DNA of 36,305 bases, from positions 1 to 36,305 of the IMG/VR virus record IMGVR_UViG_3300025803_000037; one strand, 5' to 3'. The stretch comes from a virus. Its lineage: Duplodnaviria > Caudoviricetes. Below are positions 55-36,305 of this stretch, one piece after another; the stretch's first letter is position 1, and each line of letters starts with the position of its first letter. Position numbers and translations under genes: made by a program. The notes under the pieces were generated by a model. The model was not told where the DNA came from, did no database searches, and saw nothing but the letters and a program-made list of their open reading frames with translations.

Positions 55-471
55 CTACCGCACGACCAGTGCGGCTTGGATCGGGAAATAGGCGCAAATG
101 TCTGCGTCTTGTGGGTCGCCCCTGTCAGACCTTCCGCCCTTCCCAATTTCGTAATCACCCGCAAAATCAAACCGGGCGATGTTATCCTTATAAACATTTA
201 ACAAATACGCTGGCAAGCCGGTGTGTTGCGTCAGCAGCCGCGCTTGTATAACTTTCGACAGGCTAATCATCGCTGTGTCGTACTGTAACAGGCGCACGTT
301 ACGATGCTTCACCTCAATAAATGCCTTTGCCTTGTTATCCTTAAACACCACAAAGTCGAGGCGATACTGTATCGGCAGCTTGTAAAAATCATAGCCGTGA
401 GCCGCAAAAGCATCGGCTACTGCCTGCTCTTTGCGTCTGTCGGCCTCGGTTTCGTACATTGGCCTAGCCAT
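55..471 (-). CDS. PD-(D/E)XK-family nuclease, copy 1
   Basis: LDFVVF...FIEVKHR motif. Start overlaps the MTase stop. About 90% identical to 34915..35343 (13 differences in 138 aa by hand). Confidence 0.7.
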   Translation of the reverse strand: MARPMYETEADRRKEQAVADAFAAHGYDFYKLPIQYRLDFVVFKDNKAKAFIEVKHRNVRLLQYDTAMISLSKVIQARLLTQHTGLPAYLLNVYKDNIARFDFAGDYEIGKGGRSDRGDPQDADICAYFPIQAALVVR

Positions 472-1513
472 TGTGCGCCTCCTTAATAGCCCACAATATA
501 CGCGCCGCCACTTGTGGCACGATGCTATTACCTAATTGTCTAAGGCGGTGTACCCGACCGGATACCCCATTAGCCACTCGACCCACTCCGGGTTCAGGGA
601 GCCAGAACTTACTTTTTCCCCACGGTAAACCCTCATCGCCAATTTGCTGTCGTCCCTTTTGCCTCGATCCTTTTGGTTTGGACTGTCTTTGAAGTCCCTC
701 GCTGTCGGCGTTGGATACATCTGCGCTTGATCCTTCAGTCGCGTCTGTTTCTTCTCGCCCTTGTGATCTATCCAATACAGACCTGTCCACGTCCAATCGT
801 CTCGCTTTGGCGGTTCCCCGCTGCTCGCGCTCGGCGTTGCCCACAGCACTGGCTCTATCACCTGATCCCGCAGATTGCTCGATCTTTTGCGTCTGCCTGT
901 CAAGCTCTCTTTGTATGCGCCCGATATCCCTGACGGCAGATGATCCATCGTGTTTGGCGTTGCCCACAATGGCTCGTTCCAGCCGCTGTTCATTGATGGA
1001 GCCATCTGGTTCGCCTTCGCTGTCGGCGTGTGCAATAATCCAGCATCTGTCTCTGCGGTGGTGGGCATCTGCGGCGACAGCCGGTATAACAAAGCATCTT
1101 GCTTGGTAACCTTGATTTTCCAAGTCAGATAGCACCGTGTCGAGGCCCATAGAGATGTGTCCAGCAACATTTTCTCCAATAACCCAAGTCGGCCTGACAG
1201 CTTGGATAATTCTAAGCATTTCCGGCCAGAGGTGTCGGTCATCTTTATCGCCTCGTCTGACCCCGGCAAGCGAGAAGGGCTGGCAAGGATATCCGCCACA
1301 AATAATGTCAACTGATCCTCTGAACCGTTCTGCGTCATTAGCTAACTCCCTAACGTCATCAATTATTTCTGTGTCAGGCCAATGCTTACGCAAGACCTTC
1401 TGCGCGTGTTTATCATACTCACAAAACGCGACTGTCTCATAGCCACCGACCAGCTTTTCGCCAGCGTAACTAAAGCCGCCAATGCCGCTGAATAGATCGA
1501 GCATTTTAAGCAT
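464..1513 (-). CDS. C5-cytosine DNA methyltransferase, catalytic (alpha) polypeptide, copy 1
   Basis: Motif I DLFSGIGG, motif IV GGYPCQPFS, motif VI ENV, motif VIII HRRDRCW, motif X LGNSIVPQVA. No motif IX in this frame. Confidence 0.93.
   Translation of the reverse strand: MLKMLDLFSGIGGFSYAGEKLVGGYETVAFCEYDKHAQKVLRKHWPDTEIIDDVRELANDAERFRGSVDIICGGYPCQPFSLAGVRRGDKDDRHLWPEMLRIIQAVRPTWVIGENVAGHISMGLDTVLSDLENQGYQARCFVIPAVAADAHHRRDRCWIIAHADSEGEPDGSINEQRLERAIVGNAKHDGSSAVRDIGRIQRELDRQTQKIEQSAGSGDRASAVGNAEREQRGTAKARRLDVDRSVLDRSQGREETDATEGSSADVSNADSEGLQRQSKPKGSRQKGRQQIGDEGLPWGKSKFWLPEPGVGRVANGVSGRVHRLRQLGNSIVPQVAARILWAIKEAHNG
532..1338 (-). CDS. Nested alternative-frame MTase beta polypeptide (motif IX plus four TRD-like modules), copy 1
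   Basis: 268-aa ORF wholly inside the MTase gene. AGGGAG RBS 7 nt upstream of ATG. C-terminus LNPEWVEWLMGYPVGYT is motif IX-like. Repeats LLHTP/LWATP/LWATP/MYPTP. Also open in the second copy. Confidence 0.85.
   Translation of the reverse strand: MTQNGSEDQLTLFVADILASPSRLPGSDEAIKMTDTSGRKCLELSKLSGRLGLLEKMLLDTSLWASTRCYLTWKIKVTKQDALLYRLSPQMPTTAETDAGLLHTPTAKANQMAPSMNSGWNEPLWATPNTMDHLPSGISGAYKESLTGRRKRSSNLRDQVIEPVLWATPSASSGEPPKRDDWTWTGLYWIDHKGEKKQTRLKDQAQMYPTPTARDFKDSPNQKDRGKRDDSKLAMRVYRGEKVSSGSLNPEWVEWLMGYPVGYTALDN
1346..1351 (-). promoter_or_regulatory. Internal Shine-Dalgarno site for the nested beta ORF
   Basis: Minus strand reads AGGGAG-ttagcta-ATG. Conserved in copy 2 as AGGGAG-ttagcaa-ATG. 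Confidence 0.7.
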
Positions 1514-1940
1514 CAGCTAGATGCTCCCTGATGATCATCATCGCTGTCATCTGGTCGCACTCGACCGCGTAACGCCAGTCGTATTGCTCGTGTATGTCAC
1601 CCGCTGGCAGGTAGTTGTCCATCCCGGCGACAGCAGCGACCGGGAAGCGCCAGCGGATTGGCAAACGGTCGTACTTGTAAACCAGCAAAGGCAGCTTGTG
1701 TGTCGCCAATGCACTAGCGCAGCATTGATCCCACCAAGCGGGCTGAATGCCGTACCCGGCGCGATACCGCTTCGCCTCAATGCTGAAGGGAAAGTCAGGC
1801 ATCTCAACGCAGATCAGATCGCCGTGATCCGCTGCGCGATACTGTTCTATGTCGCGCTTGAACGTCAAGCCAAGCTCCTCAAACAACAGCTTGGCAAGCT
1901 CGCGCTCAAAGCTGGCACCCTTGTTGCGGCTATTAACCAT
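1506..1940 (-). CDS. Holliday junction resolvase (Hjc-like PD-(D/E)XK nuclease)
   Basis: N-terminal SRNKGASFERELAK, then GDL and IEAKR motifs. Confidence 0.8.
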   Translation of the reverse strand: MVNSRNKGASFERELAKLLFEELGLTFKRDIEQYRAADHGDLICVEMPDFPFSIEAKRYRAGYGIQPAWWDQCCASALATHKLPLLVYKYDRLPIRWRFPVAAVAGMDNYLPAGDIHEQYDWRYAVECDQMTAMMIIREHLADA

Positions 1941-2246: not shown

Positions 2247-2522
2247 ATGACTAAACTTACTAAAAAGCAAATTGAAGCGTTCGTTGATTATGCCTACCAA
2301 CAGCATATGGCTGAGAGTTTCGATAAACACGCCTCTTGTGCTATTCGTGACAAAGACGATCTCGGTGAATACCTCAAATGTGTTGGCATCCGCAACGAGT
2401 GTGCGGCTGAGGCTGTTCTTATTGCCCGCCACGAAATCGGCATGACTGATGACCAAATCAAAAAGTGCAGCTTGTCGCTAATTAGATGGGCTGAAGCAGC
2501 CGCAGAACAGGCGGCAGCATAA
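2247..2522 (+). CDS. Hypothetical protein
   Basis: Good RBS. TAATG coupling to the recombinase gene. Confidence 0.7.
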   Translation: MTKLTKKQIEAFVDYAYQQHMAESFDKHASCAIRDKDDLGEYLKCVGIRNECAAEAVLIARHEIGMTDDQIKKCSLSLIRWAEAAAEQAAA

Positions 2523-3169
2523 TGACCCAGTACATCGCTTATTACCGTGTCAGCACTCAGCGCCAAGGCCAATCAGGTCTTGGCCTTGAGGCACAACGCG
2601 CAGCCGTTGCCGGGTACAACATCATCGGCGAGTACACCGAGGTCGAGAGCGGCAAGAAAAGCCAACGCCCGCAGCTTGCCGCTGCATTGGCAGAGGCCAA
2701 GCGCACTGGCTTCACATTGATTATTGCAAAGATGGATCGTTTAACCCGCGCCGCTAGGTTTGCGCTTGAGCTATTAGACACAAACATCAATTTTACATTT
2801 GCTGATATGCCAAACATTGACAGCAGAACGCCACAAGGTCGTTTCTTTATAACGCAGTTTGCCGCAATGGCAGAGCTTGAGGGTGCGCTGATTTCCGAGC
2901 GCACCAAGGCTGCACTGGCTGCCGCCAAAGCTCGCGGTGTCAAGCTCGGCTCGCCTGACCCTGCCGCTGCTGGCCGGGCATCAGCAGCCAAGCGCGTGGC
3001 GCGTACCAATGTCGCCGCAAAGCAGGCTATGCCTATCGTCTCGGTGCTGCGTGAGGCTGGTGCCTCACTACGCACTATCGCCGCCAAGCTAAACGAAGCT
3101 GGCATTCCAACAGCACTGGGCGGGCAATGGTACGCCAGCACTGTGCGTAACATAATGGGAGCAAACTAA
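2522..3169 (+). CDS. Serine recombinase (resolvase family) with short C-terminal recombinase-type DNA-binding segment
   Basis: YYRVST..Q catalytic-serine motif, KMDRLTR, ISERTKAAL..AK.RG.KLG, and IAAKLNEAGIPT..GGQW..STV. Confidence 0.92.
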   Translation: MTQYIAYYRVSTQRQGQSGLGLEAQRAAVAGYNIIGEYTEVESGKKSQRPQLAAALAEAKRTGFTLIIAKMDRLTRAARFALELLDTNINFTFADMPNIDSRTPQGRFFITQFAAMAELEGALISERTKAALAAAKARGVKLGSPDPAAAGRASAAKRVARTNVAAKQAMPIVSVLREAGASLRTIAAKLNEAGIPTALGGQWYASTVRNIMGAN

Positions 3170-3285
3170 TGATTAAAGATACAATCGGGATGCTGTTTGT
3201 TACAGCATTTGTAATCACGTTTTTTACTAACGCCATCACCACCGAATACAACGTGTGGGCTTTGATGGTAAAATTTGGGAGCTAA
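3169..3285 (+). CDS. Small membrane protein (38 aa; not in ORF track)
   Basis: MIKDTIGMLFVTAFVITFFTNAITTEYNVWALMVKFGS. TAATG overlap with the recombinase stop, GGGAG upstream, fills the gap exactly. Confidence 0.6.
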   Translation: MIKDTIGMLFVTAFVITFFTNAITTEYNVWALMVKFGS

Positions 3286-3287
3286 AA

Positions 3288-4241
3288 ATGGTTGGAAAAC
3301 TTACACCGGATAATCAGTTGAGCGTCAGCCGGGTCGCTACATTGTTGAACGCATCACCGTGGCAAACGCAGAATGAATTGCTTGAGGAAATGATTAGCAT
3401 TGATGAGGGCAACCCGCCAACGCGCATACCTCAGAACGAACCAATGGAACTGGGCGATTTCTTTGAGCCAATGATATTGCGAAAGGCTGCCGAGCGTCTG
3501 GCCTTAACCAATGTCGAGACTGACATTACCGTGCCATACCAGCACGATCACCTGCCACTGGCAGCCAGTCTTGATGGCACTGGCGTTGGTCACGGCTCTG
3601 TCAGGGCCAACTGGGATAAGGGTATCTATGTGCCGCAGGGTGGCTGGATAGACACCACTGGCGTTGGCTTGATTGAAGCCAAGCTAACGTCAGCACGGCC
3701 AGAAGAGATCCCGGCACCGCATCGAGGCCCGCTGCAATTGCAGGGTCAGATGATGTGTACCGGGTATAAATGGGGCTGCGTTGCTGTTCTATACCAAAGC
3801 ACAACGCTGCGCCTGTTCGTTTATCAGGCTGATGAGGTAATACAAAACCGCATTCGCGAGGCGGTTATTGATTTTGAAAATCGCCGAAAAAATATTGACA
3901 AATACCCAGTCGTGTCACCGGCTGATGGGGTGGCGGCGTATGGCCGGGTTGATACTGACGCACCGCCATTGGAGCTTGAGGGTGACGATGCACTGTGGGT
4001 TGACCACCTGATGGCGGCAAAGGCTAACAAGTCAATGGCAGAGCGAGAGATCGACATTGCCACTGCTGCCTTGATGGACACGATGGGCAGTCACGACACG
4101 GCCTTTGCCTCGGTTGGCAATCGCCGGGTGCAAGTCAAATGGCCTACTCGCAAGATGCGGGCGCAGCCTGAGAAAGTCGTGCCTGCCAAGCCTGAGACTG
4201 TCATGCGCCAGAAAACATTAACGCTAAAGGAGATTGACTGA
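3288..4241 (+). CDS. YqaJ/lambda-exonuclease-family recombination nuclease
   Basis: S.VATLL..SPWQT..EL, ME.G..FEP, ASLDG, IEAK and QLQGQM motifs. Start placed at ATG 3288 behind GGGAG. Confidence 0.85.
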   Translation: MVGKLTPDNQLSVSRVATLLNASPWQTQNELLEEMISIDEGNPPTRIPQNEPMELGDFFEPMILRKAAERLALTNVETDITVPYQHDHLPLAASLDGTGVGHGSVRANWDKGIYVPQGGWIDTTGVGLIEAKLTSARPEEIPAPHRGPLQLQGQMMCTGYKWGCVAVLYQSTTLRLFVYQADEVIQNRIREAVIDFENRRKNIDKYPVVSPADGVAAYGRVDTDAPPLELEGDDALWVDHLMAAKANKSMAEREIDIATAALMDTMGSHDTAFASVGNRRVQVKWPTRKMRAQPEKVVPAKPETVMRQKTLTLKEID

Positions 4242-34278: not shown

Positions 34279-34905
34279 CTAGAACAAATCAGCGCCCTCG
34301 ACTACCGAAGGGGTTGCAGCAACCGGGGCTGCTACGGCGGGTTCTGGGGCAGGTTCTGCCTTATCTAAACCAGCAGGGCGATCAACCCAGCCAGTTATTG
34401 CCCACTTAGGCGAGCGAAAGGTTTGTGTGCCTTGTGCCTTAGTTTCGATCTGGATGCGATCAGAGCCGGTGATCTCAACCACTGGCACCTTGCCGGGGTT
34501 GTCAGCTTTGCCAGCCAGATATGCATCGTGCAAATCATTCATCTGATTACGCACGATCTTGCTGCTGCTGCTCATCTCGCGCAGGCTGATCTCTTTGTTG
34601 TACATCCGAATGCGGAAGCCTTCCTTATGCTCATCACTAGGCTTGACCGGCATTGGCTCGCCAACCTTAACAAAACGAAAGTCAGGGCCAGTCGTGGTAA
34701 AGGCAATAAACCCAACCTCAATTGCGTCCATATCCATTACCACCTTAAAAGGCAATTCCATTTCGGTTTCGCTCTTTTCCCAAGTTCCCTCGCTAGTCTG
34801 GTGCCGGTCTTGGCGCACGAATGAGCCATCCTTTGCACTGAATTTCATAATAGGCAGGAAATCCCCGCCGCCGGAACTGCTAGTCTCTGTAAAACCTAAA
34901 GCCAT
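34279..34905 (-). CDS. Putative ssDNA-binding/annealing protein
   Basis: Beta-rich core, Pro/Ala linker and acidic-Phe tail (EGADLF), directly upstream of the primase-helicase. Confidence 0.55.
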   Translation of the reverse strand: MALGFTETSSSGGGDFLPIMKFSAKDGSFVRQDRHQTSEGTWEKSETEMELPFKVVMDMDAIEVGFIAFTTTGPDFRFVKVGEPMPVKPSDEHKEGFRIRMYNKEISLREMSSSSKIVRNQMNDLHDAYLAGKADNPGKVPVVEITGSDRIQIETKAQGTQTFRSPKWAITGWVDRPAGLDKAEPAPEPAVAAPVAATPSVVEGADLF

Positions 34906-34914
34906 TTTAAACTC

Positions 34915-35343
34915 CTAAACTTTAGAACTACGCAAAACGGTTGCGCCACCGATTGGAAAATAGGCACAGATATCTGCGTCTTGGGCATCGCCCCGGTCAG
35001 ATCTACCACCCTTCCCCAATTTGTAATCGCCAGCGAAATCAAAGCGGGCGATGTTATCTATATATACGTTCAGCAAATACGCTGGCAAGCCAGTGTGCTG
35101 CGTCAGCAGCCGGGCTTGTATTACTTTCGACAGGCTCACCATCGCTGTGTCGTACTGCAACAGCCGCACGTTGCGATGCTTTACCTCAATAAATGCCTTG
35201 GCCTTGTTGTCCTTAAACACCACAAAGTCGAGGCGATACTGCACCGGCAGTTTGTAGAAATCATAGCCGTGTTCAGCAAAAGCATTGGCTAGTGCCTGCT
35301 CTTTGCGTCTGTCGGCCTCGGTTTCGTACATCGGCCTAGCCAT
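34915..35343 (-). CDS. PD-(D/E)XK-family nuclease, copy 2
   Basis: Homolog of 55..471, 4 aa longer because of a 1-nt indel at the stop. Confidence 0.7.
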   Translation of the reverse strand: MARPMYETEADRRKEQALANAFAEHGYDFYKLPVQYRLDFVVFKDNKAKAFIEVKHRNVRLLQYDTAMVSLSKVIQARLLTQHTGLPAYLLNVYIDNIARFDFAGDYKLGKGGRSDRGDAQDADICAYFPIGGATVLRSSKV

Positions 35344-36305
35344 TGTGCGCCTCTTTGATAGCCCACAATATCCGCGCCGCCACCTGAGGCACGATGCTAT
35401 TTCCTAATTGTTTAAGTCTGTGTACCCGACCGGATACCCCATTAGCCACTCTACAAATTGCGGGTTCAGGCTCCCAGAAACTCTTTTGCCATCTGGCTTC
35501 TCCACTGCGTAATCCAGCCGATCCCTCATTGTCTCGTTTCTGCCCGACCCCTTGAAGTCGTTGGCTGTCGGCGTTGGGTACATTTTTATCTGATCTGATA
35601 GGTTCGCCCCGAATACCAGATTTGGGTTTGTCTTGCTGATCCTTTGACCCTTCTCGTTCAGTGTCCTGCCGGACGCTACGTCTGACGTTCTCGGCGTCGC
35701 CCACAGTTTTGGCTCTTGCGCCTCTTGCCACTTCCTGACCGTCTCTGGGTCTACCTGTTCCCTGAGGTTGCTCGGCAACGCCCTGCCCTTCCGATGACCT
35801 TCCGCCATCTTCTTGAGGCTCTCCTCTGACCGCTGCGGCAGATGATCCATTGAGTTCGGAGTAGCCCACAATCCAGCATCTGTCGCGTCTATGTCTGGCG
35901 TCTGCGGCGACAGCCGGTATAACAAAGCACCTTGCTTGGTATCCTTCGGCTTCCAAGTCAGATAGCACCTCGTCGAGGCCCATAGAGATGTGTCCAGCAA
36001 CATTTTCTCCAATAACCCAAGTCGGCCTGACAGCTTGGATAATTCTAAGCATTTCCGGCCAGAGGTGTCGGTCATCTTTATCGCCTCTGCGCTTCCCGGC
36101 AGACGAGAAGGGCTGGCAGGGGTATCCCCCGACAACAATGTCAACCAATCCTCTAAATCTATCTGCGTCATTTGCTAACTCCCTAACGTCATCAATTATC
36201 TCTGTGTCAGGCCAATGCTTACGCAAGACCTTCTGCGCGTGTTTATCATACTCGCAAAACGCGACTGTCTCGTAGCCACCCACCAGCTTTTCGCCAGCAT
36301 AACTA
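35336..36305 (-). CDS. C5-cytosine DNA methyltransferase alpha polypeptide, copy 2 (5'-truncated by window edge)
   Basis: GGYPCQPFS, ENV, HRRDRCW and LGNSIVPQVA motifs. The frame runs off the window end. Confidence 0.92.
   Translation of the reverse strand, partial: SYAGEKLVGGYETVAFCEYDKHAQKVLRKHWPDTEIIDDVRELANDADRFRGLVDIVVGGYPCQPFSSAGKRRGDKDDRHLWPEMLRIIQAVRPTWVIGENVAGHISMGLDEVLSDLEAEGYQARCFVIPAVAADARHRRDRCWIVGYSELNGSSAAAVRGEPQEDGGRSSEGQGVAEQPQGTGRPRDGQEVARGARAKTVGDAENVRRSVRQDTEREGSKDQQDKPKSGIRGEPIRSDKNVPNADSQRLQGVGQKRDNEGSAGLRSGEARWQKSFWEPEPAICRVANGVSGRVHRLKQLGNSIVPQVAARILWAIKEAHNG
35404..36171 (-). CDS. Nested alternative-frame MTase beta polypeptide (motif IX plus three TRD-like modules), copy 2
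   Basis: AGGGAG RBS, LWATP/LWATP/MYPTP repeats, LNPQFVEWLMGYPVGYT. Confidence 0.85.
   Translation of the reverse strand: MTQIDLEDWLTLLSGDTPASPSRLPGSAEAIKMTDTSGRKCLELSKLSGRLGLLEKMLLDTSLWASTRCYLTWKPKDTKQGALLYRLSPQTPDIDATDAGLWATPNSMDHLPQRSEESLKKMAEGHRKGRALPSNLREQVDPETVRKWQEAQEPKLWATPRTSDVASGRTLNEKGQRISKTNPNLVFGANLSDQIKMYPTPTANDFKGSGRNETMRDRLDYAVEKPDGKRVSGSLNPQFVEWLMGYPVGYTDLNN

Follow-up and report, generated by a model that had tools for sequence, protein, structure and literature searches.

A methyltransferase gene with a second gene nested in its +1 frame

The window analysed here is a whole virus record, IMGVR_UViG_3300025803_000037 (36,305 bases). On its minus strand it carries a gene for the predicted catalytic (alpha) chain of a cytosine-C5 methyltransferase, and a second open reading frame (ORF), beta, is wholly nested within it in the +1 frame. 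An initial annotation, made from the letters of the sequence, had proposed that the two products form a heterodimer of the M.EcoHK31I layout. The features of the pair are (aa, amino acids; nt, nucleotides; RBS, ribosome-binding site):

464..1513, minus strand: alpha chain, 349 aa; C5-methyltransferase large domain, long linker and motif X
1492-1475, minus strand: alpha motif I (motif scan)
1297-1280, minus strand: alpha motif IV, with the catalytic PC (motif scan)
1174-1166, minus strand: alpha motif VI, ENV (motif scan)
1063-1046, minus strand: alpha motif VIII (motif scan)
535-524, minus strand: alpha motif X, LGNS, at the alpha C-terminal end
1346..1351, minus strand: beta RBS AGGGAG, within alpha codons V-R-E, 7 nt upstream of the beta ATG
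532..1338, minus strand: beta chain, 268 aa, +1 frame of alpha, wholly nested; phrog_1008, E 1.8e-32
1036..1338, minus strand: N-terminal dual-coded part of beta (aa 1-101); contains a hairpin (aa 70-90) with predicted pairing to alpha strand 140-144
547..597, minus strand: beta segment resembling motif IX, LNPEWVEWLMGYPVGYT; in the predicted complex it packs against motif X and the motif I-II region of alpha

Judged by motifs I, IV, VI, VIII and X and by its large-domain fold, alpha belongs to the C5-methyltransferase family. The alignment to PF00145 that the initial annotation had called for matched residues 2-203 (E 2e-40), residues 2-162 match M.HhaI, and the alpha model superimposes on M.HhaI (Z 17.2, root-mean-square deviation 3.1, 173/327 residues aligned). 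[quoted passage not shown] Residues 166-199 and 212-331 of the alpha model have a predicted local distance difference test score (pLDDT) below 50, and the alpha middle is predicted to be a disordered tether linking motif VIII to motif X. A C5-methyltransferase is expected to carry motif IX and the recognition region in its catalytic chain; here the alpha middle is not under amino-acid selection (see below) and the IX-like segment is in the +1 frame.

Beta starts at alpha codon 59, before motif IV, and ends 71 nt short of the alpha end. The nested 268-aa ORF with its own AGGGAG RBS and motif-IX-like end is present as had been described, and both ORFs are on the minus strand. The Arg codon within the RBS is AGG in 29/31 alleles, and the Arg codon 13 codons upstream is CGN in 31/31.

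A similarity search with beta matched 1,475 of 1,831 candidate proteins. A structural identity drawn from beta alone was rejected, the beta model having a predicted template modelling score (pTM) of 0.22 and no matches to known folds. With this model a Foldseek search gave no match at E≤0.001; a PDB sequence search with beta gave none either, a Pfam scan of 87 betas revealed no family common to more than two of them, and no ESM Atlas neighbour of beta was named (recognition value low, 1673). It had been claimed that standard annotation would half miss the enzyme. This holds for OP869848 and a RefSeq E. coli gene, both listed with alpha only, and for Pfam, which has no model for beta, but not for GenBank MH454077, which lists both coding sequences, or for PHROGs, where family phrog_1008 exists.

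Both frames are kept open in a second copy and in relatives

A second copy of the pair lies at the other end of the record:

35336..36304, minus strand: second alpha allele, 5' end cut by the record end
35404..36171, minus strand: second beta allele, 255 aa; RBS 36184-36179, motif IX 35469-35419
35871-35707, 35706-35584 and 35583-35470, minus strand: its cassettes B, G and F (array BGF; see below)

Both frames are open in this copy (beta 36171..35404) with the same net difference of 13 codons that had been noted, both being shorter after motif IV.

Searching with alpha yielded 54 viral loci, of which 37 were complete and parsed by script, two more were complete, eight were cut at the 3' end and seven were cut by contig ends. 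The +1 frame was open from the same start to motif IX in 37/37 of the script-parsed loci, and a nested +1 gene was also found in both members of a divergent subfamily missed by the pattern (L049 and L050), so that beta is open in 39/39 complete relatives. Frequent stops in the beta frame of homologs, which had been named as a way to refute the proposal, were therefore not seen. In the eight loci cut at the 3' end the +1 frame was open up to the contig edge, and the third frame never exceeded 79 codons in the alpha-found loci. L049 (2501-3250) and L050 (1521-2270) have the first 59 and last ~35 residues of the window alpha with a different motif IV-VIII core, which has its own nested +1 gene; on sequence grounds this is a replacement of the whole core inside the gene.

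A beta profile found 160 loci (80 genome, 80 viral) in many phyla; a few of the loci repeat earlier contigs. In 149/160, beta lies inside an alpha that has motifs IV, VI and X (148 by script and L158 by eye), and four more are cut at the 5' end, consistent with alpha. A profile of the cassettes (see below) and motif IX matched 28,353 representatives at E≤0.001 and 9,532 at 1e-10. Given the alpha protein, 8.7 beta-frame stops would be expected (log10 P of none, -4.5); given the beta protein, 19.8 alpha-frame stops would be expected (log10 P of none, -10.8).

Beta contains a row of cassettes that differ between alleles

The initial annotation had missed that beta is more than a carrier of motif IX. 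Between its N-terminal 100 residues and motif IX it is a row of cassettes of 21-60 residues, which start with [ML]-W-[PA]-T-P and frequently end in L-x-x-x-V-[KR]. We split the cassettes by pattern and grouped them into types at 60% identity. The first copy has the array AEMI:

970..1035, minus strand: cassette A (beta 102-123), short; always first in the array
847..969, minus strand: cassette E (beta 124-164)
721..846, minus strand: cassette M (beta 165-206)
598..720, minus strand: cassette I (beta 207-247), a last-slot type

The 37 script-parsed loci and the two window copies amount to 32 unique alleles, whose 92 cassettes fall into 26 types and form 28 distinct arrays, 1-5 cassettes long. 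Among 28 allele pairs with flanks at least 95% identical, 11 had no cassette in common and one had the same array. The wider set contained 347 cassettes (median length 39) in 137 betas; up to 10 junction matches were counted in the motif scan. Certain types occur in the first slot only or in the last slot only, and we rejected free reordering of cassettes, since none of 60 ordered type pairs occurred in both orders. The differences between arrays would fit gain, loss and replacement by recombination at conserved junction DNA.

We likewise rejected a monomeric form that would have motif IV, the cassettes, IX and X in a single frame: motif IV was found in 0/150 of the best representatives. Five of these 150 have cassettes, IX and X together (P0261, P0270, P0283, P0371, P0376). 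All five also have an alpha-frame 'W..EP..RV' shadow after motif IX and are therefore read as derived, not ancestral, which suggests an escape from nesting via duplication of the motif-IX DNA.

Selection passes from alpha to beta along the gene

Nucleotide diversity at alpha codon positions 1/2/3 was determined across the 32 alleles (L045 was left out of three N-terminal segments owing to an indel). It was 0.017/0.014/0.287 in the alpha-only start before beta, 0.123/0.083/0.178 over the first 95 shared dual-coded codons, 0.241/0.069/0.037 in the cassettes (pooled within 11 types), 0.206/0.062/0.059 at motif IX and 0.082/0.074/0.377 at motif X. Alpha position 1 is the wobble position of beta, and beta is therefore the selected protein in the middle region. 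At both ends of the gene it is alpha that is under amino-acid selection; over motifs IV-VIII both frames are selected, and in the cassette row the selected frame is beta, alpha being only kept stop-free there. The check for synonymous constraint that had been proposed thus showed codon-position variation shifting from the alpha to the beta frame across the 'variable region' of alpha.

The avoidance of alpha stops is strict. With one representative for each of the 26 cassette types, 72.8 alpha stops were expected and 0 were present; across all 92 cassettes the third frame contained 149. Beta codons ending in T, which would stop alpha when placed before AA, AG or GA codons, were used there in 0/726 cases vs 396/1647 elsewhere, and in a wider set of 141 unique loci in 0/2967 vs 1777/7307 elsewhere. 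Upstream of the beta start, the +1 frame contained 71 stops in 1,376 codons.

The initial annotation had taken a 116-nt identity between the window copies as a sign of double-frame constraint. The identical run (1139-1254 and 35972-36087) is real, but carries little weight by itself: across the dual-coded 5' part the copies are 87.4% identical, which is not above the 88.3% of the neighbouring nuclease gene. As proof of double constraint it was therefore rejected. The informative part of the comparison is the spread of the differences over codon positions, 12/7/17 in the dual-coded 5' part and 9/2/31 in the nuclease gene.

Predicted assembly of the two chains

Co-folding of alpha and beta with alignments gave an interface score (ipSAE) of 0.91 in three runs, the best of three controls reaching 0.00. 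The mark used was reached by 116/157 solved complexes and 2/215 mismatched pairs. Contacts agreed between runs to at least 79%, with a partner pLDDT of at least 58. In the models, beta 244-267 contacts alpha motif X and the motif I-II region, and beta 82-89 pairs with alpha 140-144; one stretch of 16 bases (1093-1078) encodes both of the joining strands (alpha 141-143 and beta 85-87). Alpha 165-290 had no confident contact.

Conservation of both frames and of the beta start and RBS, the switch of selection and the co-fold score of 0.91 all support the proposed heterodimer of the M.EcoHK31I layout. As an interpretation it was incomplete, since beta also holds a selected, cassette-built variable region, which in the M.EcoHK31I family is in alpha.

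Cassettes as candidate recognition domains

The cassettes are likely recognition domains, judging by their position and junctions. The last junction lies a median of 38 residues (n=110) before motif IX, and the distance published for the TL motif is 10-50 (PMC2413257). A profile of 226 cassette junctions ranked three TL-like sites of M.SPR first to third, the first score being matched by 6/1000 shuffles and the second by 1/1000. On the published consensus, we take these three sites to be the TL motifs. The same profile found two sites in a related Bacillus plasmid enzyme and nothing in a chain with motifs I-VIII only.

Comparison with known systems

M.EcoHK31I (E. coli, YGGCCR) has an alpha chain with motifs I-VIII, motif X and the recognition domain, and a beta chain with motif IX in another frame; both are needed (PMC2836561, PMC3404938), and the enzyme is active from two separate genes (PMC2836561). 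Of 5,426 E. coli genomes, 81 contained the gene when searched with a primer from the supplement of PMC2836561; the same search in plasmids gave no match. The E. coli gene matching the published primers (L219) encodes a 309-aa alpha and a 176-aa beta in the +1 frame (2808-3338). RefSeq lists alpha only for this gene, and its beta is absent from the annotation. In 80-100 kb E. coli and Salmonella plasmids (matches H128-H157), EcoHK31I beta matches in two pieces (~40% identity) beneath genes annotated as Dam-family methyltransferase; 183 plasmid records match.

As in L219, the phage beta lies wholly in the +1 frame of alpha, with motif IX just before alpha motif X. The alpha chains of the two systems are 36% identical over 166 residues, and the motif IX segments align in register with EcoHK31I beta (8/19 identical for L049). 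Between the phage and EcoHK31I betas only motif IX aligns, with E ~0.01 in single comparisons. We compiled 35 unique EcoHK31I relatives from 44 intact of 48 loci, which were taken from the better-matching part of 80. In this family the frame under selection across alpha 213-257 is that of alpha (0.25/0.18/0.43, 0.05/0.08/0.47 and 0.21/0.09/0.32), which agrees with the published location of the recognition domain, and only motif IX flips to beta (0.43/0.14/0.13). The recognition-like stretch is thus selected in alpha in the EcoHK31I family, whereas in the phage enzyme it is in beta, as a row of cassettes. EcoHK31I beta also starts later, at alpha codon 104 rather than 59, and its gene (L219) adjoins a 318-aa restriction nuclease, while the phage gene is flanked by PD-(D/E)XK nucleases of 138 and 144 aa, whose activity might still be cognate. 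Because the recognition-like region is selected in beta and not in alpha, we do not file the phage enzyme as a plain member of the M.EcoHK31I type.

Multispecific C5-methyltransferases of Bacillus phages carry tandem recognition domains (PMC8936443, PMC2413257). Like M.SPR (OM236515, spr_161), the enzyme described here is phage-borne and has short tandem units with a T-x-T/S-A-x-D-like core between motifs VIII and IX. M.SPR, however, is one 439-aa chain in one frame, whereas the units of the window family, 1-5 per beta, have Pro at the TL 'L' position, sit on a separate overlapping chain and must each stay stop-free in two frames. Multiple specificity has been shown for SPR; for the phage enzyme it would follow by analogy.

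In split C5-methyltransferases of the M.AquI type there are also two chains (PMC3404938), and there, too, the second has the distal variable region and motif IX. It carries motif X as well, and the genes are adjacent; here motif X is on alpha and beta is nested. The AquI-like gp79/gp78 of Mycobacterium phage Twister (L302, 1189-2182) has two such cassettes and motifs IX and X in gp78 (profile E 8e-10 among 5 test proteins).

BLOOM_56/BLOOM_57 of a Paenibacillus larvae phage, in families phrog_363/phrog_1008, belong to the same nested family, with two cassettes in the Bloom beta. Both members of this pair are annotated 'DNA methyltransferase' with no comment on nesting, and the table in PMC6070908 lists two methyltransferases without mention of it. 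An out-of-frame HNH nuclease has been described in another methylase (PMC11855218). In a literature search of partial coverage, which does not establish absence from print, we found no description of nested or cassette-built phage C5-methyltransferases. The nested pair itself is already in GenBank for some Paenibacillus phages; what is new relative to the M.EcoHK31I layout is the cassette-built beta, likely a swappable specificity chain.

Proposed mechanism and alternative explanations

We propose that one 1050-base gene yields two separately translated chains of one cytosine-C5 methyltransferase. Beta would dock on alpha through the predicted extension of the alpha sheet by its hairpin and the packing of motif IX on motif X. 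Each cassette would act as a target-recognition domain. As in the Bacillus phage enzymes of multiple specificity, the cassettes would be used singly, which would let the enzyme methylate several sequences. Recombination at the conserved DNA of the junctions would add, remove or replace them. The enzyme may shield replicating phage DNA from host restriction: restriction-type sites are depleted in the genome (GCCGGC 2 vs 54.7 expected, CCAGG 4 vs 49.7, AGCGCT 0 vs 31.1; within 1500-34800, CATG 92 vs 297 expected and CGACG/CGTCG 0 vs 46, with strong depletion also of GGCC, CCWGG, GAATC/GATTC and numerous palindromes of six bases), and the gene sits in a group of replication genes, which together make such protection a likely role.

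That the enzyme has two chains we regard as very probable, and placing its recognition part in beta seems well justified. The whole explanation, a catalytic alpha with a beta bearing motif IX and exchangeable recognition cassettes, is reasonably likely. Its analogy-based element, that the cassettes give several specificities, leans only somewhat towards being correct. For the widest version, in which recognition as a whole has passed to an overlapping gene throughout a very large phage family, as a plug-in cassette row under a two-frame rule, and sister phages in one water sample differ in their methylation programme, we see the balance as about even.

Several observations weigh against this explanation. 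The junction profile test was devised after the SPR sequence had been viewed. When the TL consensus (YFW)X(RK)X5P(STCA)PT(ILV)(TASV) was tested, P[STCA]PT was present in 103/286 junctions and followed by I/L/V in seven, the aromatic residue at -8 was present in 11 and R/K at -6 in 27, and the cassettes have Pro at the hydrophobic position of the TL motif. A profile hidden Markov model (HMM) of cassettes and motif IX scored 1.2 bits on M.SPR, which is not significant, and found no PDB methyltransferase. At 22 aa, cassette A looks too short to form a recognition domain, and cassette bodies were predicted with low confidence. The predicted IX-X contact resembles that inside solved monomeric C5 enzymes, so this part of the co-fold may pass by likeness. 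Among the 160 beta-found loci, alpha is interrupted in three (L076, L106, L206) and motif IX had no match in four. Finally, site depletion points to restriction pressure and not to what the enzyme methylates.

The same data bear on four other explanations. A two-chain enzyme might have one fixed specificity, with only the last cassette reading DNA and those upstream spare or silent but usable after recombination. Silent recognition domains do occur in multispecific enzymes, types C, F, I, K, L and N were found only in the last slot, and betas with a single cassette exist (3/32, and 16/137 in the wider set). Yet the first and middle types A, B, E and G are under beta-frame selection (third position 0.19-0.49 vs 0.00-0.10 at the other two), such types never occupy the last slot in the window family, and type M has a recognisable relative in the distant locus L132; we consider a fixed specificity unlikely. 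Still less probable is that the cassettes read no bases and instead bind a host or phage protein, or DNA non-specifically, the enzyme being promiscuous or taking its specificity from elsewhere. Their G/K/R/S-rich, poorly predicted sequences, with no HMM or fold match to solved recognition domains, would suit such a role, but they occupy the position of the C5 recognition region, their junction profile finds the TL-like sites of SPR, and the unselected alpha middle leaves no other candidate region.

A single polypeptide could in principle be made by two programmed frameshifts, from alpha (I-VIII) to beta (cassettes and IX) and back to alpha (X), as the order of motifs along the DNA is that of a monomeric enzyme. 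The ribosome would then skip alpha across the cassettes, where alpha stops are nevertheless avoided (0/726; 0/2967). Moreover, the beta RBS and start are conserved 290 nt before motif VIII, the N-terminal part of beta is under selection, and M.EcoHK31I works from two separate genes (PMC2836561). Stop avoidance in alpha and the conserved beta RBS and start argue for two separately translated chains, making double frameshifting highly improbable. We judge just as improbable that alpha acts alone, with beta either open by chance or an overprinted gene unrelated to it. The missing Pfam match and the low ESM Atlas value (1673) of beta would be in keeping with this, but selection favours the beta frame, alpha lacks a folded small domain, the co-fold supports a pair, and 28,353 representatives match the cassette and motif IX profile (E≤0.001).

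On the cassette-based two-chain explanation, the single described oddity M.EcoHK31I becomes a common phage design with changed logic, in which a hidden chain likely sets what is methylated. Annotation of alpha only ascribes specificity to a region without amino-acid selection. If the cassettes are recognition units, they would allow a direct test of how C5 enzymes read DNA, offer phages a fast route to track host restriction and supply ready-made building blocks for methyltransferases that are split or multispecific; a library of new DNA specificities would then exist in thousands of natural cassettes. In addition, the gene is a clear example from nature of long dual coding on one strand, with indels that respect both frames.

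Genomic setting and origin of the second copy

Other genes of the window encode podovirus-like head and tail proteins and internal virion proteins, together with a primase-helicase, a serine recombinase and a RecE-like exonuclease. The alpha/beta gene sits in the phage replication operon between two nuclease genes:

1506..1940, minus strand: upstream PD-(D/E)XK nuclease gene (PF24608; RusA-like phrog_244), 8-nt overlap with the alpha start
55..471, minus strand: downstream PD-(D/E)XK nuclease gene (PF24579), 8-nt overlap with the alpha end; served as the single-frame control

The serine recombinase and RecE-like exonuclease genes (2522-3169 and 3255-4241, plus strand) are transcribed away from the methylase operon; they are a possible source of the recombination that exchanges cassettes.

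The record ends overlap by ~1.47 kb (8-607 vs 34880-35478, 87.2% identical; 1037-1472 vs 35869-36304, 89.9%), and these ends (1-1472 and 34870-36305) carry different cassette rows. One contig of run X1 passes from 34931, in the end region, into the sequence of copy 1, with loose ends. The record ends are probably two strains joined in one assembly, which would make the genome ~34.9 kb, and the second copy is probably an allele of the same locus from a co-assembled sister strain. A true gene duplication is disfavoured by the end overlap at 87-90% identity and by the X1 contig. An assembly error in the copy-1 cassette row was rejected as well, since contigs of 377-501 nt span 568/575-946 with zero differences in 4/4 runs. 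Six RNA runs, considered for signs of expression, contained just 0.10-0.16 of the sequence words. Summed contig depth was 400-2170 at 561-640, the motif-IX DNA, vs 6-33 in the cassette row, and loose ends were numerous at 596-604; this excess and the loose ends indicate a segment common to many different phages.

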